Origin: Bacillota bacterium | Lineage (GTDB): Bacteria > Bacillota > Clostridia > Saccharofermentanales > DTU023 | Direction: 5' to 3' | Length of the DNA stretch: 64,000 nucleotides | Assembly: GCA_029570375.1 (NCBI GenBank) | Contig: JAKPXB010000049.1 | Span: 25,046-89,045 of the forward strand | Shown here: positions 2,424 to 59,947 of the stretch, in pieces | How positions within the stretch are numbered: position 1 is the first letter of the stretch | Layout: each line of letters opens with the position of its first letter | Position numbers and translations under genes: made by a program | Notes under the pieces: generated by a model | Databases searched by the model: none | What the model was told of the DNA's origin: nothing | What the model saw: the letters and a program-made list of their open reading frames with translations, nothing else

Positions 2424-3401
2424 ATGCCGGACGCCGATCGCGCGCCAGAAACGTACAGGACCTCGTCTCTTGACGATCTCTTCTGCCGGACAAAAGAGAT
2501 CGTGAGATCGCGCCCCGACGCTGTACCCGTGATCACCGGTCCGACAGCGGCCGGAAAATCGTCGCTCGCCATGCGCCTCGCTCTCGAGACAGGCGGCGAA
2601 ATCGTAAACTGCGACGCGATGCAGATTTACCGCGGATTCGATATCGGGTCCGCCAAGCCGGACCTGGAAGAGCGCAGGCAGGTCGTCCACCATATGCTCG
2701 ATATCAGGGATGCCTGCGACAGTTACAGCGTCGCGAAATACGTGGAGGAGGTCACTCCCGTTCTTCAATTACTCCTCAGGGAGAAGCGCCGGCCAATCCT
2801 ATGCGGCGGCAGCGTCCAATACATCTCCGCTCTTCTGGACGGACTCCTTTTCCCCGATCTGGCTGTCGACAGCGATCTGCGGGCATCGGTTACACTCGAA
2901 GTCGAGACTCGCGGGCTCCCTGCCTCCTGGGAACTGATCGCCGCCATCGATCCTGAAGCAGCGTCTGCTATAGCTCCTGCGGACAAACGGAGAATCATCC
3001 GTTTTTTCGAACTCTACCGACAGACAGGCATGACAAAAACAGCGCTCAACGAGCTCTCCCGATCTCAGGGAGCAAAGTTTCGTTTCATCAGTTTCTGGCT
3101 TGACTGGCATCCGAGAAAAGCGCTCTACCAGAAGATCAATCAACGCGTCCGGACAATGTACGATCAGGGCCTGCTAGAGGAAACAAGGGCGTTGATGCGC
3201 CAATACCCCTCGTACAAGGACTGCCCCGCTTTTCGCGGCATCGGTTACCGGGAAGCCGTTCAGCATATTGAAGGAAGAATAACAGAAAGCGAAGCAAGGG
3301 AACAGACAGCTCAATCGACGAGACGGTACGCCAAGCGACAGCAGACATGGCTTCGGAAACGCGACGATCTCATTCTTCTCCTGTACGACACGCTTTTTTG
3401 A
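2424..3401 (+). CDS. miaA: tRNA dimethylallyltransferase MiaA
   Basis: P-loop ITGPTAAGKS and IPP-transferase family sequence. I moved the start to ATG 2424, which has an AGGGGGAG RBS. The longer ORF from 2337 overlaps the mutL 3' end. Confidence 0.9.
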   Translation: MPDADRAPETYRTSSLDDLFCRTKEIVRSRPDAVPVITGPTAAGKSSLAMRLALETGGEIVNCDAMQIYRGFDIGSAKPDLEERRQVVHHMLDIRDACDSYSVAKYVEEVTPVLQLLLREKRRPILCGGSVQYISALLDGLLFPDLAVDSDLRASVTLEVETRGLPASWELIAAIDPEAASAIAPADKRRIIRFFELYRQTGMTKTALNELSRSQGAKFRFISFWLDWHPRKALYQKINQRVRTMYDQGLLEETRALMRQYPSYKDCPAFRGIGYREAVQHIEGRITESEAREQTAQSTRRYAKRQQTWLRKRDDLILLLYDTLF

Positions 3402-3495
3402 TATAAGCGAAGTTTCAACGTCTTGGTTTCTATAAGATAAAAGAGCTCTCCCTTTCAACAGGTCATGATGAGAGTGGTGCCTGCACGGCCGACAG

Positions 3496-3524
3496 TTGAC
3501 AAGAGCGTGCCGGAGAGAAATGCT
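3496..3524 (+). promoter_or_regulatory. Candidate hfq promoter: TTGACA-17 nt-AATGCT
   Basis: A perfect -35 (3496-3501) is followed by a 17-nt spacer and a weak -10 (3519-3524). The element lies 67 nt upstream of the hfq ATG. Confidence 0.3.
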
Positions 3525-3532
3525 GCCGGCGC

Positions 3533-3544
3533 GAACCTGTGTTC
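3533..3544. promoter_or_regulatory. Cheo-type LexA box GAACCTGTGTTC (GAAC-N4-GTTC)
   Basis: This is a perfect palindromic core, flanked as CGAAC....GTTCC. It lies 47 nt upstream of the hfq start and just downstream of the candidate -10. Confidence 0.4.
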
Positions 3545-3590
3545 CGGACGTGCCTCAGAGAGAGGACACGTTTTAGAAAGGAATCCTTTT

Positions 3591-3938
3591 ATGTCTTACC
3601 AGTATTCAGAAGAAACACCCATCCAGAAAAACAGCGTACCGAATCAACCGCTTCGCATCCAGGAGACTTTCCTTAATCACTGCCGCCGTGAAAAGATCAA
3701 TGTCGTTATTCAGTTGTTTGATCAGACGATCATCGAGGGACTTATTATCGGTTTTGACCAGGAATCCATTGTCGTGTCGTCGCGCGGCACCCAACAGCTG
3801 CTGTATAAGTCGTCCGTCGTCTGTGTCAGACCCTTCGAGGAACTGCACCTCATCTTCAATGACGGCTTGAGAAACAAAAGGAGAGGTATCGCGTATCCGC
3901 GCGTAACAGCCGTCCCGCCCGTGAATCACCGCCACTGA
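3591..3938 (+). CDS. hfq: RNA chaperone Hfq (atypical, 115 aa)
   Basis: The Sm core QETFLNHCRREKINVVIQLFDQTIIEGLIIGFDQESIVVSSRGTQQLLYKSSVVCVRP aligns to Hfq. The miaA-hfq synteny is conserved. I chose the start at ATG 3591, which has a GAAAGGAA RBS. The 157-aa ORF from 3465 has no support. Confidence 0.8.
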   Translation: MSYQYSEETPIQKNSVPNQPLRIQETFLNHCRREKINVVIQLFDQTIIEGLIIGFDQESIVVSSRGTQQLLYKSSVVCVRPFEELHLIFNDGLRNKRRGIAYPRVTAVPPVNHRH

Positions 3939-4634: not shown

Positions 4635-4678
4635 ATAATTCTCCCATTCTGAAGCGTTTTTTAATTCTCATCAGGGAA

Positions 4679-4707
4679 ATTATAACAAAACAATTGTTCA
4701 TTATCAA
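4679..4707 (-). promoter_or_regulatory. lexA promoter TTGATA-17 nt-TATAAT
   Basis: The minus strand reads cTTGATAatgaacaattgttttgtTATAATttcc. The SOS box lies inside the spacer. Confidence 0.6.
4688..4699. promoter_or_regulatory. LexA box GAACAATTGTTT (one mismatch to GAAC-N4-GTTC)
   Basis: The box is inside the lexA promoter spacer, 54 nt upstream of the lexA ATG. This is the classic autoregulatory position. Confidence 0.6.
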
Positions 4708-4772
4708 GCAAAACTCACGTGCGCGGAGGGAAGCATATGGTAAAATAGTGATCATTAAGGAGAGTAGTAATT

Positions 4773-5315
4773 ATGACAGATCAGCCGCCTGACAATAGCG
4801 ATTCGATCCGGAAGCATCCGAAAACACTGATTCCTTTGCGGAAGACAGCCGTGGAAACCGAAGAAGTTGCGGTACCCGCCGGCGAGGAACCTGGCGGTGT
4901 CCGCGGACTCTCAGGCGGTATTCATGAGCCCGGAACGCCTCCTGACGGCTATCGTGGGCCACGCGGAACGACCGCCTGGATTACCGATATATACCGCGAT
5001 GACAAAATAAGTGTTGATACTCAGAAGAAAGCAGGCCGCCGCGTATTTCGGCTAAAAGGTTACACAACCGTCGGCAAGATTAACCGCAAGTTCAAACATG
5101 AGCGCCAGCAGCGTCTTTTGAGGAATGTGCTGACAACACTGATGATTATTATTCTGCTGATCATCCTGTTCGCCATTTATAATCCGTTCAAGGATATGAA
5201 AGAGTTTCGGAAAATAAGCGGAGAAGACAGTCTGTACAAGAACCGCACCATCCCAACATCAATTGATACAACCGCCAACGCGCATCCGGCTGAAAGTGCT
5301 GCAACCGGACAGTAA
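4773..5315 (+). CDS. Hypothetical single-pass membrane protein, divergent from lexA
   Basis: AAGGAG RBS 8 nt upstream. An extended -10 TGGTAAAAT lies at 4738-4746. There is one hydrophobic helix (VLTTLMIIILLIILFAIY). The N-terminal ~120 aa are Pro/Gly/charged-rich. I recognise no family. Confidence 0.6.
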   Translation: MTDQPPDNSDSIRKHPKTLIPLRKTAVETEEVAVPAGEEPGGVRGLSGGIHEPGTPPDGYRGPRGTTAWITDIYRDDKISVDTQKKAGRRVFRLKGYTTVGKINRKFKHERQQRLLRNVLTTLMIIILLIILFAIYNPFKDMKEFRKISGEDSLYKNRTIPTSIDTTANAHPAESAATGQ

Positions 5316-5555
5316 TCCATGGATCGGCAGATCAACCGCCGGCGCGTTTCAGGATGGATCTTTTGCGATCAGGCGCATCTTCAGAATCATTTTAAATGAG
5401 TTAAAAGGTACAACTACCTGATTGACAGACGCTCGATTCATCCTGGAGCCATCGTTTAAGTACAAAAGCTCCGGTCATTTCGCTGAAAAGAGGCGCCGGC
5501 TTTCGATAAACATCAAAAACACCGGAAGCGCGCGAAAACCTTTTGGGGGCCTCCC

Positions 5556-5587
5556 GTACTTCGTAAAATTTATATTTTACGAAGTAC
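5556..5587. repeat. Perfect inverted repeat GTACTTCGTAAAAT-TTAT-ATTTTACGAAGTAC (14-nt arms); candidate dif-like recombination site
   Basis: Read directly from the sequence. It sits in the 405-nt non-coding gap 5316-5720. The inner 28 nt have an 11-6-11 layout. No U-tract follows on either strand. Confidence 0.9.
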
Positions 5588-5720
5588 CATTGCGTGGGTC
5601 GGCTTGCCCCGCGTGCGCTCATCAGGCTCCCATCCTGCCCCTTCTGCTATTCGCGCACGTTGTAAGGTGATTATGACCACTTCTCCCGATCGCATAAAAG
5701 GAGCACAGTCCGCGCCGCCA

Positions 5721-7262
5721 TCAACCCATTAATCTGTTTTCAAGCGGTCTCAGCAGGGATTCCCGGTCGAGATCCGGACGCAGCCCGGCAAGGTCATTCA
5801 GCGCGATGCGGGCTCCCTTGTCCATATTGTGTGATCCGGCGAGCACATAGAACTCTCCCGGTCTGACCATAGGAAGCGTCGCCCGGATCGCCTCATGAAG
5901 TGACGGCTCATAGATGAAGTCGTACCCCGCCGCCGTTAAATCAGACAGCACCGCTTCGCGCTCATCGTCATGGACAATATCGCGCGCCCGCGCCGTATCG
6001 GTGCTTGACGTGACATAGAACGTCTTCCAGTTGATTCTGTCCCGGAATAGCGCGAATTGCGCGATCACCTCTCTGTTCACTAGAACACCTCGGTTGCCGC
6101 GTATCGCGACGACTATGTGAACGGGTTTCCCCTCCGTCATCACCACGAGCGCTTCCAGCATTTTCCGGGTATTATCTTCGTCGCTGATGTGATCATCGAT
6201 CATCATAAAATCGCCGTCGTAGATCACCTGCAGACGCCTCTCAACACCGGGAAAACTCTCGATCGCACTGATCGCGTCCCGCACATCGACACCGTAGTAC
6301 AACGAGATCGTGATCGCGGCCATAGCGTTGTATACAGAATGGCGACCCGCCACTTTCAATCGGACCGGCCATCTCCCCGTCCCGATCTCCCCTTCACATG
6401 TATAAAACGGTTGATTCACTGTATAGTCAAAGCGGGCAAACCCGCCTGTCATATCCAGATGATCCGCAAAGATCGTGACATCACGATGATCAATGCTGAT
6501 TGTTATGACATCACCTTTAGTCCGATTCCTCGCCTCAAAGACGCGCGGATCGTCGCGATTCAGGATCACAGGGACCCCCTGCGAGACATTTTCGACGAGT
6601 TTCAGCTTCTCCCTGTAGTATTGCTCGAACGATCCATGATCCGGCATATGATCTGGTGTTATATTTAGAAAACATACAACATTATAATCGATCCCGTAAA
6701 CTCTGTACTGCGCTTCAGCGCTTGAGGATACTTCCATCGCGACAACTTCAACGCCGGCGTCCCGCTGTTCGGCAAACATCGCGTGCAGATCGGAGCTCTC
6801 TGGTGTCGTCAGGTTTGATTTCTCCCGGACATCGCCGTAACTGTATGCGACGGAGCCGATCACAGCTGTTTTAACGTGGGATTCCTGCAGAATATGCTGT
6901 ACCATCGTGGTGGTCGTCGTCTTCCCGTTCGTCGCCGTCACACCGACCATAAAGAGGTCGAGATCGGCGTAATCAAAAAAGGCACGGGAGAGTTCAGCCA
7001 GAGCGCGCCTCGCGTTCGGCACCCTGATCTCCGCAATTTTTTCCATAGACTGCGGTTCCTCAACGACGACGGCGACAGCCCCTTTCTTCGCCGCTTCGCC
7101 GATATAGAGATGTCCATCCGTCAGAGAACCGCGAATCGCGACAAACAGGCTCCCGGGCATCACTTTTCTCGAATCGCAGGTCACACCCGTAATCTCCGGA
7201 TCGAAAGGGAGATTGATAATATCAGCGTCGGTAAGCGCCGGCAGTAAGTGAGATAGTTGCAT
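5721..7262 (-). CDS. Mur ligase family protein, MurE-like N-terminal and central domains with a divergent C-terminal domain
   Basis: Matches to MurE include ITGVTCDSRKVMPGSLFVAIRGSLTDGH, the P-loop GVTATNGKTTTT, LTTPES..., MEVSS and NITPDHMPDHGS. The C-terminal region (AIRGNRGVLVNRE, TSSTDTARARD) does not show the usual GxGGxRDxxKR / DNPR motifs. Confidence 0.75.
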   Translation of the reverse strand: MQLSHLLPALTDADIINLPFDPEITGVTCDSRKVMPGSLFVAIRGSLTDGHLYIGEAAKKGAVAVVVEEPQSMEKIAEIRVPNARRALAELSRAFFDYADLDLFMVGVTATNGKTTTTTMVQHILQESHVKTAVIGSVAYSYGDVREKSNLTTPESSDLHAMFAEQRDAGVEVVAMEVSSSAEAQYRVYGIDYNVVCFLNITPDHMPDHGSFEQYYREKLKLVENVSQGVPVILNRDDPRVFEARNRTKGDVITISIDHRDVTIFADHLDMTGGFARFDYTVNQPFYTCEGEIGTGRWPVRLKVAGRHSVYNAMAAITISLYYGVDVRDAISAIESFPGVERRLQVIYDGDFMMIDDHISDEDNTRKMLEALVVMTEGKPVHIVVAIRGNRGVLVNREVIAQFALFRDRINWKTFYVTSSTDTARARDIVHDDEREAVLSDLTAAGYDFIYEPSLHEAIRATLPMVRPGEFYVLAGSHNMDKGARIALNDLAGLRPDLDRESLLRPLENRLMG

Positions 7263-8621: not shown

Positions 8622-9629
8622 GTGGGCGATAAGATGAACGAAAACCGTAAACTCCCGATCGATACTTTTCAACGGCTCGAAGAGTTCCTTGGCTACATTC
8701 AGGCGATTCTCGAGCGTTCTGCAGGCACGGTGCGGCAATACCGCTATGATCTCGTGCTGTTCTTTCGTTTTCTGATCGCGGACAACCGGAAACTCCAGCC
8801 TGAAGACGAGGCATGGACGAGCATTGACATCTCCGTCGTCAATGATTCTTTTCTCCGGTCCCTTCAGCTCTCCGACCTATACTCCTATATCACATGGCTC
8901 GCGGCGGTCCGACGGACATCGCCGGCGACGAGGGCGCGGCGCTCCTCATCCCTGCGGTCATTTTTTGATTACCTGACAACAAAAGCGCATGTGCTGGATG
9001 AGAACATCGCCGCCAACCTCGAGCTGCCGAAACAGACCCGGCGTTTACCGCGATACCTGACACTGGATGAAAGCCGCGAACTCCTGCATGTCGCTTCCGG
9101 AGACGAATCACGCCTCTCCTCCCGGGACTACTGCATCCTGACACTGTTTCTCAACTGCGGTATGCGGCTGTCAGAACTGTGCGGCATCGATCTCCCGGAC
9201 TGGCGGGAGAATACGCTCGTTGTCCTTGGAAAAGGCGGAAAAGAACGGACCATCTACCTCAACAGCGCCTGCATCGCCGCGCTCCGGGACTATCTCCCCG
9301 ACCGTGTAAAGCCTGTCCCTCAGGAACGCGACGCGCTGTTTATCTCCCGTCTGGGAAAGCGCGTGACGCCGCGCGCTGTGCAGAATATCATCAAGAAATA
9401 CATCCGGCAGGCAGGACTCGACCCTGAGCGCTATTCCACGCACAAGCTCCGCCATACGGCCGCGACACTGATGTACCAGTACGGCGAAGTCGATATCAGG
9501 AGCCTGCAGGCCATACTCGGGCACTCTTCCGTCGCGACAACCGAAATCTACACGCATATCGACGAGCGCTCTCTCCACGATGCCGTCGAGCTGAATCCGC
9601 TCAGCCACGAGCGGAACAAATCAAGCTAA
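8622..9629 (+). CDS. Tyrosine recombinase, XerC/XerD-like
   Basis: Catalytic signature present: GMRLSEL (Arg), GKGGKER (Lys), HKLRHTAAT (His-x-x-Arg), LGHSSVATTEIYTH (His, Tyr). An N-terminal SAM-like domain is present. The start is GTG 8622 or ATG 8634. Confidence 0.85.
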   Translation: MGDKMNENRKLPIDTFQRLEEFLGYIQAILERSAGTVRQYRYDLVLFFRFLIADNRKLQPEDEAWTSIDISVVNDSFLRSLQLSDLYSYITWLAAVRRTSPATRARRSSSLRSFFDYLTTKAHVLDENIAANLELPKQTRRLPRYLTLDESRELLHVASGDESRLSSRDYCILTLFLNCGMRLSELCGIDLPDWRENTLVVLGKGGKERTIYLNSACIAALRDYLPDRVKPVPQERDALFISRLGKRVTPRAVQNIIKKYIRQAGLDPERYSTHKLRHTAATLMYQYGEVDIRSLQAILGHSSVATTEIYTHIDERSLHDAVELNPLSHERNKSS

Positions 9630-48028: not shown

Positions 48029-49299
48029 CCGTCTATGATACCCTTTCGGAGAAGATTGAGCGCCGCCGCGGCGGATTGTTTTCTGATTCTTTCGCGGTCA
48101 CCGTAGAATTGGTACCGCCGGGCGGTTACGCCGGCCTCTGACGCGAGCGCGATAAAGACAGTGCCGACCGGTTTCTCGTCCGTGCCGCCCGAAGGCCCCG
48201 CGATCCCTGTGACAGACACTGCGTAAGTGGCTTTTGTGAGCGCCCGGCAGCGCTCTGCCATGGATTTCGCGCACGCTTCACTGACTGCCCCCTCTGAAAG
48301 GAGAACAGTCTCCGGCACACCGAGAAGCGCTTGTTTCATATCATCGTTATAGGTGATCATTCCGCCGAGAAGTGCCGCCGAAGCGCCGGGGATGGAACCG
48401 ATAGACGAGGCGAGCATGCCGGCCGTACAGGATTCGGCAAACGCGCATGTCTCCCCCCGCGCGATCAGAAGATCGAGGACCACTTCGGCGAGCGTCCGCG
48501 GCCCGATCTCGAACACATAACCGTTCAGTTTTTCACAGATCGCCGCGACGACGGAGTCCGTCCTGTCTTCATCTCCTTCTTCCAGGCGCTGTGAGACTCT
48601 GTATACCACTTCCCCCGGGCTGGCGTACGGGGCGATCGTAACGCGATCCTGCGCGTCGATCAAGTCGCGGATGACCCGTTCGCTCTTCGATTCCCCGATA
48701 CCGGTCAGCCGCACATAGCGGTGCACGAAACGCGCCTCACTGTATTTCTCGAGCGCCGGCCTGACATAATGGGCGAACATCGGTTCCATTTCGCGGGGCG
48801 GTCCCGGGAGCATCAGAATCGCTTTTGTTTTTCCTCTGTAAGAAAAAAAAGTAAGCGATCCGGGCGCGGTGCCGTTATCGTTATGGAAATATTCACTGCC
48901 CTCCGGGATCAAAGGATACGCCGGCGTCGCGTGTACGGCGTCCCGGTAACGGTCGTTTATCCTCGCGTTGATGTCCTGATTGGGAATGAGGGGAACGCCC
49001 GCGACGCGCGCCGTCACCGAACTTGTGATGTCATCCTCTGTCGGGCCGAGACCGCCCGTCGTGATAACCAGATCGTTTTCCTCGACGGCGCGAAGCAGTT
49101 CCTTCGCCAGCCGTCCGGCGTTGTCGCCGACCACGACATGCCGATAGGTGGAAAATCCGATTTCCGACAACTGACGCGACAGGAATCGCGCGTTCGTGTC
49201 AACGATCTGGCCGACCAGAAGTTCGGTCCCGACTGAAATGATTTCCGCAGAATGAAAGACCGCGCGAATCTCAGAATCCATTAAACCCACCGCCGACAC
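48025..49299 (-). CDS. cinA: Competence/damage-inducible protein CinA (MoCF-binding domain + PncC-like deamidase domain)
   Basis: AEIISVGTELLVGQIVDTNARFLS, and a C-terminal CinA domain (AESCTAGMLAS). ATGA overlap with murJ. An alternative start exists at 49281. Confidence 0.85.
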   Translation of the reverse strand: MSAVGLMDSEIRAVFHSAEIISVGTELLVGQIVDTNARFLSRQLSEIGFSTYRHVVVGDNAGRLAKELLRAVEENDLVITTGGLGPTEDDITSSVTARVAGVPLIPNQDINARINDRYRDAVHATPAYPLIPEGSEYFHNDNGTAPGSLTFFSYRGKTKAILMLPGPPREMEPMFAHYVRPALEKYSEARFVHRYVRLTGIGESKSERVIRDLIDAQDRVTIAPYASPGEVVYRVSQRLEEGDEDRTDSVVAAICEKLNGYVFEIGPRTLAEVVLDLLIARGETCAFAESCTAGMLASSIGSIPGASAALLGGMITYNDDMKQALLGVPETVLLSEGAVSEACAKSMAERCRALTKATYAVSVTGIAGPSGGTDEKPVGTVFIALASEAGVTARRYQFYGDRERIRKQSAAAALNLLRKGIIDG

Positions 49300-52021
49300 C
49301 GTCCATGCCGCGCATCAGCTGTTCGTACTGCTCTCTTGTGATCAGTATTTTGCGCGGCTTGCTCCCCTCGTGCGGGCCGACCCACCCCCGCTCGCTCAGC
49401 CGGTCGATCAGGCGCGCCGCGCGCGGGTATCCCACGGACAGCCGCCGCTGCAGCAGCGAGACGGCGGCGTAATCCGCCTCAATGACGGTCGCCAGAGCGT
49501 CCATCAGCAGCTCATCTTCTCCTCCCGGTTCCCCCCGATCATCCTCAGCGGAAGAGCCGGCCGGGTTCTCAAGAGCCGCCGCGACACTCTCGTCGTACTG
49601 CGGGTCGTGGTAATCCTTGATAAACGACAGGACGGCTTCGACTTCGCTGTTGGAGACGAAAGCCCCCTGCCCCCGGATCGCCTTGATCGCGCCGATCGGG
49701 AAGTAAAGCATGTCGCCCTTCCCGAGAAGTTTCTCCGCTCCGCTCGCGTCGATGATGGTCCGGGAATCGACCTGCGACGCCACGGCAAAAGCGATACGGG
49801 AAGGGATATTCGCTTTGATGACGCCTGTGATGACGTCGACAGACGGCCGCTGCGTCGCGATGATGACATGGATCCCGACGGCGCGTGCCTTAGCCATAAG
49901 GCGCGAAATCGCGTCCTCCACCTGATGCTGCGTGACAGCCATCAGATCCGCGAGCTCATCGATGACGATGACAATGCGGGGCAGCGGCATCTCGTCCTCC
50001 TCAGGATCTTCGATTGCGCGGACAGCCGCGTTATAAGAGTCGATATCGCGCACCCTCCGCCCGGCGAACATCTGGTAGCGCTTCTCCATCTCCCGGACGG
50101 CAAAATTGAGAACGCCGTAGGCTTTTTCCGGATCGGTGACAACAGGGTGCATGAGATGTGGAATCCCGTTATAGACATTCAGCTCGACGATTTTCGGATC
50201 AATCATCAGGAAACGCACATCTTCCGGAGACGAACGGTAAAGCAGGCTGATCAGAATCGAGTTAATGCAGACCGATTTTCCCGAACCGGTCGCGCCGGCA
50301 ATCAGGATATGCGGCATCTTCGCGAGATCGCAGAGAATCACATCGCCGCCGACGTCGCGGCCGAGCGCCGCGACGAGCGGCCCTTTCGCCTGCTTGAATT
50401 CGTCAGACTGGATGAGGCTGCGGAGGAGAACGGGCCGCGTGAGCCTGTTGGGGATCTCGATGCCGATGGCGGCTTTCCCCGGAATCGGCGCTTCGATGCG
50501 CACACCCATCGCCGCGAGGCTCAGCGCGATGTCATCGGACAGATTGACAATGCGGCTGACCTTGATCCCCGGACCGGGCGCGAGCTCAAACCGCGTAATC
50601 GTCGGCCCCGACGTGTAATTGACAATGCGCGCTTCCACGCCGAAGCTGTCCAGCGTCTCCTCGAGTTTCCGGCCGAGTTCGCGGATCTCCCGGACTTCCT
50701 GTGGCGTTTTTTTCATGCCGCGGTCTTCTTTGAGGAGTTTCAGGGGGGGCGCTTTATACCCATTCAACAGGCTCAGCTGCTGCCGCGCCTTTGCCGGTGT
50801 ACGCTTCGGAAGCACCTGCTCCTTGTCGTCACCGCGGTCTTTCCAGCGCGCGCGGTCGATCATCGACTCCTGCTGAATGGATTCCTCTTTGCGTTTGATA
50901 TCGAAATCCCGCATCGGCGGTCTGACCGCCTGGGGCGGCGGCTCACTGCCAAGGAAGACTGAAGGCTCCTGGAATGCCGGCAGCTGGACGGGAGCCGTCA
51001 TCCTGCCGGGCGGCGTGAAGAGGTACGGCTTCCCCTGAAGGGGTTCCCGCTCTCTCCGCGATACATCGCCTGCACGGTATCCGGGCGGCGGTTTCGGAAA
51101 GACGGGGCGGTCCTGCGGAAGCTCCGCGCCCTCAGCCGGCTTGTGAAAGAGCGTCTCCCATCCGGCAGGTCCGGCGGGAAGCTCGATAGGTCCCATCCGT
51201 TTGTCCGGCTCATCCGCCGCGCCGGCCGGTTCAGTTTTTTCGACAGATTCCCCTTCAGACTCGTGAGTGGCAGGCTCTCTGTGCTTTTTAAATAAATCCG
51301 TCCATCTCCCCTTAGAGCGCGACGCGGCGCGCGCGCCGCCCTCAGCCGTATCGTCGTCCGGTGGGATGTCCGCGAGGTCGCCGCCTCTGAAGGAAGCCGC
51401 TTTTTTCGCCAGCCTGGCGGGCGATAAACCGAACGCATAAACAAGGATGAACACAACACTCGCAAACAGAATAATAACCGCTCCGGTGGTCCCGGCAATA
51501 CGCTCGAGCGAATGCGCGATGAGCCCGCCGATCAATCCGCCGCTCATTTTATTGCCTTCGCGGATCAGCTCAGGGGAGAGACCGCATTCCCACAGCTTCG
51601 CGATCACATGGAATCCGGCAAACCCTTTCTCCGCGAGCGGTTCCAACAGAGGAAGGAGTGTCTTGTAGGGAACAGCGAAAAGCGAGATGAACGCTGTCAT
51701 GATGGTGTAAAGCAGCACCGATGCGCCGACTTGTTTCGCGGTAACGGAGAGTTCGCGCCCGCGGAAAAACATCAGTGAGAATAACAGAATACAGGCCGGC
51801 AGCAGGAGCGCAAGTGTCCCGAAAAAACCCCGGACGGCCGTCAGGAGGAAACGCCCGAGCCAGCCTGTCCAAGAGGCCGGGGCGAGAAGCGCGAACGCGA
51901 GCAGCAATCCGATAGCGAGAAAAATAACACCGAGCAAATCCCGCTGCTGGCGTTTCGTCAATTCAAAACCTGATTGATTCTCCCCTGTCGGCACGTTTCC
52001 CCGCGTCCTCTTTTCCTTCAC
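49271..52021 (-). CDS. ftsK: DNA translocase FtsK/SpoIIIE
   Basis: N-terminal TM helices and a Pro/charged linker. Motor domain with Walker A GATGSGKSVCIN and Walker B VIVIDELADLM. C-terminal gamma wHTH (LLQRRLSVGYPRAARLID). Confidence 0.95.
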   Translation of the reverse strand: MKEKRTRGNVPTGENQSGFELTKRQQRDLLGVIFLAIGLLLAFALLAPASWTGWLGRFLLTAVRGFFGTLALLLPACILLFSLMFFRGRELSVTAKQVGASVLLYTIMTAFISLFAVPYKTLLPLLEPLAEKGFAGFHVIAKLWECGLSPELIREGNKMSGGLIGGLIAHSLERIAGTTGAVIILFASVVFILVYAFGLSPARLAKKAASFRGGDLADIPPDDDTAEGGARAASRSKGRWTDLFKKHREPATHESEGESVEKTEPAGAADEPDKRMGPIELPAGPAGWETLFHKPAEGAELPQDRPVFPKPPPGYRAGDVSRREREPLQGKPYLFTPPGRMTAPVQLPAFQEPSVFLGSEPPPQAVRPPMRDFDIKRKEESIQQESMIDRARWKDRGDDKEQVLPKRTPAKARQQLSLLNGYKAPPLKLLKEDRGMKKTPQEVREIRELGRKLEETLDSFGVEARIVNYTSGPTITRFELAPGPGIKVSRIVNLSDDIALSLAAMGVRIEAPIPGKAAIGIEIPNRLTRPVLLRSLIQSDEFKQAKGPLVAALGRDVGGDVILCDLAKMPHILIAGATGSGKSVCINSILISLLYRSSPEDVRFLMIDPKIVELNVYNGIPHLMHPVVTDPEKAYGVLNFAVREMEKRYQMFAGRRVRDIDSYNAAVRAIEDPEEDEMPLPRIVIVIDELADLMAVTQHQVEDAISRLMAKARAVGIHVIIATQRPSVDVITGVIKANIPSRIAFAVASQVDSRTIIDASGAEKLLGKGDMLYFPIGAIKAIRGQGAFVSNSEVEAVLSFIKDYHDPQYDESVAAALENPAGSSAEDDRGEPGGEDELLMDALATVIEADYAAVSLLQRRLSVGYPRAARLIDRLSERGWVGPHEGSKPRKILITREQYEQLMRGMDGVGGGFNGF

Positions 52022-59911: not shown

Positions 59912-59947
59912 CCATAGAAAGCGGCGGTCATGTCAGGCCGCCGCTTC
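59912..59947 (-). terminator. Hairpin after rpsO (terminator/attenuator in the rpsO-pnp spacer)
   Basis: On the minus strand, AAGCGGCGG-cctgacatga-CCGCCGCTT forms a 9-bp stem, followed by TCTATGG (a weak U-tract). Confidence 0.5.

Follow-up and report, generated by a model that had tools for sequence, protein, structure and literature searches.

The 32-nucleotide palindrome at positions 5556-5587 of the DNA analysed here (hereafter the window, meaning the whole 64,000-nucleotide stretch taken from contig JAKPXB010000049.1) is probably the dif site, the place of chromosome dimer resolution, in this Clostridia bacterium of the Saccharofermentanales type. This reading, which rests on comparison of sequences, had been put forward as a hypothesis in an initial annotation of the same DNA and is now supported by the conservation of the site among relatives, a local switch in GC skew, linkage of the site to a gene for a Xer-family tyrosine recombinase (xer), and the symmetry of its arms. 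We also think it likely, with somewhat less assurance, that one Xer-family recombinase, the product of the gene at 8622-9629, serves both arms. Xer/dif chromosome dimer resolution is nearly universal, and the present site is best described as a new variant of the single-recombinase type, the arms of which resemble the XerC-side arm of the Firmicute dif.

Architecture and uniqueness of the palindrome

The palindrome can be read in two ways, as a complete inverted repeat or as an 11-6-11 recombination site nested within it, and its parts are as follows.

5556-5587: complete palindrome and candidate dif site, 14-4-14
5556-5569: left 14-nt arm, GTACTTCGTAAAAT, followed by the centre TTAT
5574-5587: right 14-nt arm, ATTTTACGAAGTAC
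5558-5568: predicted left recombinase-binding arm, ACTTCGTAAAA, a perfect inverted repeat of 5575-5585
5569-5574, + strand: predicted central 6-bp strand-exchange region, TTTATA, asymmetric
5575-5585: predicted right recombinase-binding arm, TTTTACGAAGT, mirroring the left arm

The perfect 14-nt inverted repeat described in the initial annotation is borne out by the letters of the window themselves, as is its content of about 25% guanine plus cytosine (GC; 8 of 32 positions); the figure of roughly 60% GC given there for the genome needs correcting, with the window ranging from about 47 to 62% around a mean of about 55%. Read as ACTTCGTAAAA-TTTATA-TTTTACGAAGT, the element has the generic format of a dif site, being AT-rich and non-coding, with inverted-repeat arms and a centre of 6-8 bp within a total of 28-34 bp. 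It is the only inverted repeat with perfect arms of at least 14 nt in the 64 kb. Just two 11-6-11 palindromes with at least 10 of 11 matches occur there, the second of which, at 59919, is a GC-rich hairpin, and a half-site search of the window at up to two mismatches returned three matches, against 3.9 expected, two being the palindrome itself and the third standing at chance level. The site occurs once in the window, once on each contig of the scans described below and, among the matches listed, once per assembly for the representatives of the window's own site class (class C, below). Given this single copy, a REP-like multi-copy element, which the initial annotation had named as an outcome that would speak against a dif site, is rejected for this lineage.

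Conservation of the site among relatives

A genome scan using one genome per species, the inner 9 + 9 nt of the palindrome and a free 6-nt centre returned at least 120 loci, where about 10 were expected by chance; the same pattern applied to viral contigs gave 45 loci against about 1 expected, and searching metagenomes with the 11-nt arms of the window yielded 66 loci. In 26 of these metagenome loci the synteny of the window is kept, with lexA, the short open reading frame orf180, the site, murE and/or asd, and xer, and with proteins that are 50-100% identical. The matches of the genome and viral scans, which also include several phage groups, comprise three site classes, the counts for which all rest on the matches listed (at least 120 loci).

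Class C (window type): GTAC-TTCGTAAAA-TWTAWA-TTTTACGAA-GTAC, in Mageeibacillus and metagenome-assembled genomes (MAGs) of Saccharofermentanales
Class A (a large sister class): aACTA-TTCGTAAAA-GCTGYR-TTTTACGAA-TAGTt, in Christensenellales-type and other Clostridia MAGs
Class B: gcg-TTCGTAAAA-GTGTAC-TTTTACGAA-cgc, in Planococcaceae/Bacillaceae

Alignment of the spacers between orf180 and the next gene from six Saccharofermentanales/Mageeibacillus species of class C revealed ACTTCGTAAAATTnnTATTTTACGAAGTAC (5558-5587) as an invariant island of 30 nt in surrounding DNA that is unalignable between these species, the flanking proteins of which are only 40-85% identical. The block thus appears to be under purifying selection at the level of its sequence, which we count in support of a functional site. 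The gene on the right flank varies among relatives (murE, asd, ThrE or an acetyltransferase), and the site persists. Conservation at syntenic loci, a check proposed in the initial annotation, therefore came out in favour of the site, including at loci that were chosen through their protein and not through a DNA pattern; the identical 28-mer is present in a locus fetched via a 69%-identical Xer.

The recombinase and its linkage to the site

Two proteins of the window are of the kinds that a dif site generically calls for, and both are encoded to the right of the palindrome.

8622-9629, + strand: Xer-family tyrosine recombinase, presumed cognate enzyme (Pfam Phage_integrase and Phage_int_SAM_1)
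49271-52021, - strand: FtsK/SpoIIIE-family DNA translocase, presumed activator (Pfam FtsK_alpha, FtsK_SpoIIIE and FtsK_gamma)

The Xer-like gene that had been pointed out 3 kb from the palindrome is confirmed by its Pfam domains and by the catalytic motifs GMRLSEL, HKLRHT and GH..EIYTH, and the ftsK that had been reported in the window is likewise present, with alpha, motor and gamma domains. The recombinase, the only one in the window, starts at 8634 and has 331 amino acids in the public annotation. Its best NCBIfam match is XerC, and all of its scores lie below the family cut-offs (XerC 225 bits against 335, XerD 188 against 330, XerA 179 against 220, XerS 127 against 267). The best sequence matches in PDB are to XerA (5hxy and 4a8e; 1.6e-31), with XerD at 9e-29 and XerH (5jjv) at E = 8e-20, and the public names conflict, the protein being 'XerC' at NCBI and 'XerD' at JGI.

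The distance of about 3 kb between gene and palindrome in the window is typical of its class, as in class C an xer orthologue (62-88% identity) always lies 2.4-2.9 kb from the site, the intervening genes being asd and, in some cases, murE. A tblastn search with the window recombinase placed a homologue of 28-40% identity beside almost every class A site among the listed loci, about 160-900 bp away, and 35-110 bp from several other variants of the site. In 60 genomic loci the homologue lies within 1.5 kb of the site, and in 59 of the 60 it is transcribed away from it. The class of the site tracks the similarity of the recombinase, and in most loci lexA is found 0.6-3.4 kb from the site.

Symmetry of the arms and orientation of the centre

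As a control on symmetry, loci were fetched via Xer orthologues (57-69% identity) and the convergent gap equivalent to that of the window was inspected, giving the following sites.

L247: ACTTCGTAAAA-TTTATA-TTTTACGAAGT
L248: ACTTCACAAAA-CTTTTA-TTTTGCGAAGT
L243: ATTCGACAAAA-TAATAA-TTTTGTCGAAT
L244/L245: ATTAGACAAAA-TATAAA/TAAAAA-TTTTGTCTAAT
L246: ATTAGACAAAA-TAAAAA-TTTTGTCTAGT
L249: ATTAGACAAAA-TTATTA-TTTTATATAAT

The arms of these protein-chosen loci are self-complementary at 9-11 of 11 positions, against 6 of 11 in the dif of B. subtilis, and a substitution in one arm has its mirror in the other. In class A, the positions outside the fixed pattern remain complementary over exactly five further nucleotides (71-86%, with 25% expected by chance), beyond which complementarity drops to background, with 18 different outer 5-mers represented, so that the outer mirror symmetry stops sharply past 14 nt. 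The asymmetric centre is oriented in one way with respect to the flanking genes; in the orientation of the window, the 26 syntenic loci carry TTTATA (12), TTTGTA (9), TTTCTA (3) or TTATTA (2). Since the arms remain mirrored while their sequence changes between lineages, a single protein would be expected to read both of them. Two copies of one recombinase would predict this combination of a defined 14-nt arm, arms that co-vary in mirror fashion and a centre of set orientation; a terminator or a generic hairpin would not. The suggestion in the initial annotation of a symmetric site reminiscent of single-recombinase Xer systems fits both this co-variation and the tight linkage of site and xer across Clostridia.

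One pair of relatives is closely matched: in L244 (4723-4750) and L245 (4721-4748), circular contigs of 3.15 and 3.21 Mb, the Xer proteins are identical, the arms are identical, and the palindromes differ at one central position (TATAAA against TAAAAA).

GC skew around the site

At a replication terminus, the skew of the + strand is expected to be positive on the left and negative on the right, whatever the orientation of the locus. In class C, the skew was higher on the left than on the right in 14 of 14 syntenic loci flanked on either side by 1 kb or more (mean +0.030 and -0.044, p = 1.2e-4), a result that holds in both stored orientations. Among the listed class A loci, 34 of 37 switch skew at the site, and in averaged 500-nt bins the left side is positive throughout (about +0.05) and the right side negative throughout (about -0.04), the sign flipping exactly at the site. 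When 60 loci were oriented by their adjacent xer, the xer-free side was positive in 36 of 41 (p = 8e-7) and the region beyond xer negative in 35 of 45 (p = 2.5e-4); because both regions keep their sign, the base composition of xer is not what produces the signal. The negative controls showed no switch (class B, 11 of 18; viral matches, 15 of 31). The window's own contig has a skew of 0.000 across the 9.8 kb left of the site; on the right the values are -0.084 for the first 10 kb and -0.059 for 58 kb, which makes a clear step. At the local level, then, the skew extremum that the initial annotation had proposed to look for has its counterpart in a switch at the site in the syntenic and sister-class loci and in the step from 0.000 to -0.084 in the window's contig.

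The same annotation had proposed looking for a polarity inversion of FtsK-orienting octamers around the site. Skewed 7- and 8-mers found de novo do converge on the site from both sides (for example GAAGAAG, 7:0 on the left and 21:9 on the right), which is in favour of a terminus; the pattern is confounded by gene orientation, and the motifs KOPS (GGGNAGGG) and SRS (GAGAAGGG) have too few occurrences to judge. dnaA was not located in the Mb-scale records of relatives, the start points of which are arbitrary, so the coordinates of the site in those records are uninformative as to the terminus.

Genomic setting of the window

The palindrome lies in a gap between convergent genes, flanked as follows.

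4773-5315, + strand: orf180, 180 amino acids, without a family match
5316-5720: convergent intergenic gap holding the palindrome, between orf180 (+) and the Mur ligase (-)
5721-7262, - strand: MurE-like Mur ligase

Farther left, in the orientation of the window, stand mutL, miaA and hfq on the + strand and then lexA on the - strand, and past the left edge of the window follow mutS, a MiaB-like gene and a transglutaminase gene, all on the + strand. By open reading frame calling, five of six genes on the left are on the + strand within the window, and seven of eight along the source contig, a 145-kb contig of a MAG (GCA_033812255.1, JAPXUB010000006.1), while 41 of 49 on the right are on the - strand. 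The strand switch reported initially therefore stands as to the left side (five of six), and on the right the count becomes 41 of 49 instead of 47 of 52, with the same trend. The neighbourhood of mutSL, miaA-hfq and lexA is proximal to the terminus in B. subtilis too.

Some further features of these neighbours were noted. The longest hfq open reading frame (3465-3938, + strand) has 157 amino acids, with the Hfq domain at residues 65-126, and its start differs between gene callers, with 115 amino acids in the NCBI record and 157 in the Logan contig. The gene orf180, divergent from lexA, has no match in Pfam or NCBIfam and encodes one hydrophobic segment (LLRNVLTTLMIIILLIILFAIY); its position beside lexA is kept in all class C relatives, at 39-75% identity. 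The promoter region shared by lexA and orf180 (4635-4772) contains a LexA-box-like AAACAATTGTTC. Judged by position, orf180 could encode an SOS-induced cell-division inhibitor comparable to YneA of B. subtilis.

Evidence against a dif site and alternative explanations

Several observations weigh against reading the palindrome as dif. Left of the window's site the skew is about zero and not clearly positive, the cumulative skew peaks on a plateau some 4.8 kb leftward of the site, and no skew switch was seen in the relatives L106, L243, L246 and L249; GC skew and gene orientation are, moreover, interdependent signals. The DNA-pattern scans pre-selected symmetric arms. One relative, L250, has a 60%-identical Xer in a rearranged context and no site within 21 kb, and the linkage of xer to the site is therefore not universal. 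Finally, the core motif is not exclusive to dif, as it also occurs in an Oscillospiraceae/viral group with an adjacent xer and no skew switch and in a multi-copy look-alike of Planococcaceae.

This last point leads to the alternative that the palindrome is an attachment or recombination site of a Xer-like module other than dif, whether a domesticated or resident mobile integrase or a site-specific switch, with the true dif lying elsewhere. The same core does stand beside Xer-like genes on inovirus-like and other viral contigs, the Oscillospiraceae group combines it with an adjacent xer and no skew switch, and one MAG (CAYWKM01) has two sites, one beside xer without a switch (L068) and one with a switch (L076). 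The neighbourhood in the window, however, consists of housekeeping genes only (mutSL, miaA, hfq, lexA, murE, asd, opp), and its gene annotation contains no phage or mobile genes; the site is single-copy, with no second half-site of the attL/attR kind within the 64 kb, whereas an inversion switch would require two copies; and the joint preservation of site, synteny and skew switch across many species would be unexpected for an integrated element. We consider this alternative unlikely.

An operator for a dimeric transcription factor, acting on the neighbouring SOS genes or in autoregulation of xer, would also account for a perfect, AT-rich and intergenic palindrome, for the proximity of lexA in most loci and for the position of the class A site upstream of xer. 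The window's site, by contrast, is downstream of both flanking genes and outside any promoter region, and it bears no likeness to the GAAC-N4-GTTC LexA box, the separate LexA-box-like AAACAATTGTTC being in the promoter region of lexA and orf180. Within a genome, operators recur at several promoters, and they are not markers of a skew switch; a conserved, asymmetric centre of fixed orientation is typical of recombination sites, all of which makes an operator very improbable.

We attach equally little credence to a hairpin serving as a bidirectional terminator or RNA-stability element for the convergent orf180 and murE. The palindrome does sit in a convergent gap, and its 14-bp stem folds on both strands (-27 and -24 kcal/mol in context, z about -4.3), but its sequence is invariant across species beyond what preservation of a structure would ask, the class A site lies upstream of xer between co-directional genes, and neither the skew switch nor the linkage to the recombinase would be explained. 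An intrinsic terminator is rejected, given the AT-rich stem, the lack of a U-tract on either strand, which had been remarked on initially and is borne out on both strands, and a promoter/terminator scan that made no call. A known RNA element is rejected for want of an Rfam match in the gap, as the gathering-threshold scan of the window found two tRNAs only, both elsewhere, and a permissive scan of 5316-5720 found nothing even at E <= 1.

Comparison with known Xer/dif systems

With the XerCD/dif system of B. subtilis (CodV/RipX), which lies at the terminus, the dif site proposed here shares an 11-6-11, AT-rich and intergenic format. The B. subtilis dif quoted in the initial annotation is correct, the string ACTTCCTAGAA-TATATA-TTATGTAAACT occurring in PMC3025954, and the matches claimed for the window's left arm with the XerC-side arm (9 of 11) and for the centre (5 of 6) hold. 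So does the claim that the right arm mirrors the left and departs from the conserved XerD arm TTATGTAAACT, which it matches at 6 of 11 positions only. The arms are thus symmetric at 11 of 11 positions, against 6 of 11 in B. subtilis, and, unlike in XerCD systems, the recombinase reaches neither the XerC nor the XerD cut-off and its gene is linked to the site. Taken together, the XerD arm at 6 of 11, the identical arms and the equivalog scores that are not reached by the one recombinase of the window set the locus apart from the canonical XerC/XerD type. The search for a canonical Firmicute dif that had been proposed found none with a XerD arm within the window, where no TATATATTATGTAAACT-like site is present at up to three mismatches. 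For Clostridia, the tables of the comprehensive dif survey by Kono et al. 2011 list canonical XerCD-type sites only, and the present motif is absent from them.

Four single-recombinase Xer systems are described in the literature searched, namely XerS/difSL, XerH/difH, archaeal XerA and the XerL of Legionellales. XerS/difSL of streptococci and lactococci is, like the system proposed here, a Firmicute single-recombinase system with a linked gene and inner arms of the ...GAAAA / TTTTC... type, and it is FtsK-dependent, an FtsK gene being present in the window as well. The differences are that XerS has about 356 amino acids, that the window protein reaches 127 bits against a cut-off of 267, and that the window's arms are equal and perfect within 28-32 bp, with the gene 3 kb off and not adjacent, whereas the 31-bp difSL has imperfect arms that differ in length and a centre that is larger (PMC5357621). 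Genetic linkage of recombinase and site characterises both xerS/difSL and xerH/difH (PMC5357621). XerH/difH of Helicobacter and Campylobacter resembles the proposed system in its single recombinase, its largely palindromic arms ending in GAAAA (AGTTATGAAAA) and a gene near the site, and differs in the imperfect arms of difH and in XerH itself, which has 354-362 amino acids, belongs to another phylum and is a more distant relative (5jjv). The class A centre GCTGCA is reminiscent of the centre of difH.

Archaeal XerA/dif pairs a single Xer, as proposed here, with a 28-bp 11-6-11 site, and XerA structures give the best PDB sequence matches; the window protein nonetheless reaches 179 bits against the XerA cut-off of 220, and XerA is FtsK-independent in archaea, whereas the window's bacterium encodes an FtsK with a gamma domain. 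The dif of XerL in Legionellales consists of long, uninterrupted perfect inverted repeats of 10-12 bp, for which one recombinase is necessary and sufficient (PMC9765430). The perfect inverted-repeat arms are shared with the window's site, and XerL, too, was discovered through comparative and mobile-element clues. XerL is proteobacterial and too divergent for Xer homology searches, whereas the window protein is plainly of the Xer family, and xerL and dif are more than 400 kb apart in Legionella, against 3 kb here. No report of the motif, or of a single-recombinase Xer system in Clostridia, was found in the literature searched.

Proposed mechanism

If the system works like XerCD, XerS, XerH and XerL, each arm of 11-14 bp would be bound by one recombinase monomer. 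FtsK (49271-52021), for which we infer a role at the palindrome, would translocate toward the site and bring the sister sites of a dimeric chromosome together at the septum, where a recombinase tetramer would cleave at the borders of the 6-bp centre via the tyrosine of the EIYTH motif. Strand exchange through a Holliday junction would then introduce the extra crossover needed to turn the dimer back into monomers. With both arms the same, the site would owe its direction solely to its asymmetric TTTATA centre. That the recombinase binds and cleaves the site, that it depends on FtsK and that there is no second recombinase is in each case inferred.

Distribution of the motif and related elements

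We regard as evenly poised the broader reading that the window belongs to an undescribed, widespread dif/Xer system of the single-recombinase kind in several orders of Clostridia and their relatives, including Saccharofermentanales, Christensenellales-type gut lineages and Halanaerobiales-like low-GC lineages, with outliers. Such a system would consist of a perfect or near-perfect palindrome of two XerC-type arms (the core TTCGTAAAA-N6-TTTTACGAA and its derivatives) that takes its direction from the 6-bp centre only, with xer in genetic linkage, at the terminus, to both the site and lexA, and the module would also circulate on inovirus-like phages.

A low-GC, Halanaerobiales-like group comprises six metagenome loci of 28-34% GC (L198, L208, L212, L216, L239 and L242) and Halanaerobium saccharolyticum (L029). 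Its site, gtaaaa-ACTTCGTAAAA-TTATTA-TTTTACGAAGT-tttatt, sits at a very strong skew switch (about +0.2 / -0.2), with lexA about 2.7 kb away and no xer homologue within about 3 kb; the site type therefore reaches beyond Clostridia, and the linkage of gene and site is not universal.

A variant in Oscillospiraceae/Ruminococcus MAGs (L073, L087, L089 and L100) and one viral contig (L129), ctat-TTCGTAAAA-TTTTTA-TTTTACGAA-atta, has a 38-40% identical Xer-like gene 51-79 bp away (51 bp in L073, L089, L100 and L129) and no skew switch; in one case the contig also carries a gene for a phage replication initiator. This variant is probably a mobile recombinase-plus-site module and not a chromosomal dif. 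Filamentous phages usually hijack the XerCD of their host. Three inovirus-like contigs of 6.6-8.2 kb (L130, L131 and L149) encode a rolling-circle Rep, a Zot/pI-like morphogenesis protein and a Xer-like protein of their own, 40% identical to that of the window, the gene for which lies 86-108 bp from a TTCGTAAAA-N6-TTTTACGAA site; they appear to bring along a recombinase as well as a dif-like site. The arrangement in L131 is as follows.

30-1103, - strand: Xer-like gene
1138-1161: site
1579-2529: Rep-like gene
2623-3447: Zot/pI-like gene

From the inovirus-like and Oscillospiraceae modules we read the motif as a substrate of Xer-type recombination and the modules as mobile, which is also a ground for caution.

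Tailed-phage contigs of 44-60 kb from IMG/VR sample 3300045988 (L136, L137, L141-L143, L145, L154, L157, L159, L163, L165, L168 and L172) carry the site aaag-TTCGTAAAA-TTGTAG-TTTTACGAA-ccga between two small open reading frames (in L136 at 1196-1219, with the terminase at 5121-6896), and no close Xer homologue was found near it. It may be a dif mimic, an attP of the IMEX type aimed at hosts with such a dif. The class B look-alike, (ttcaaa)gcg-TTCGTAAAA-GTGTAC-TTTTACGAA-cgc(tttgaa), is present several times per genome and sometimes at contig ends in Planococcus (L038, L040, L041, L050, L053, L062, L095, L102, L110, L115 and L119), Peribacillus (L026 and L058) and Domibacillus (L065 and L082). 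With neither a skew switch nor an adjacent recombinase at these loci, it looks like a separate repeat element that shares the core by accident. In the MAG CAYWKM01, the site of L068 (6766-6789) is the one beside an xer homologue without a switch, and that of L076 (1848-1871) lies in a convergent gap at a switch, with no xer in the stretch fetched; the pair could represent a chromosomal dif and a second, element-borne module, or else a binning artefact.

Implications

Departures from the XerCD paradigm are few (XerS, XerH, XerA and XerL), and each has been informative. If the present system is a further one, it would raise the questions of how directionality and the order of strand exchange are imposed with identical arms, how FtsK would activate a homotetramer, and whether the system arose when XerD was lost or when a mobile module of recombinase plus site was captured. 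For MAGs of poorly cultured gut and digester Clostridia, the motif offers a simple marker of the terminus that would aid the validation of assemblies and peak-to-trough estimates of replication rate. It also marks a likely integration hot-spot for phages carrying dif mimics, and the presence of the module on phages, if true, suggests an exchange between the dimer-resolution machinery of the host and mobile elements.

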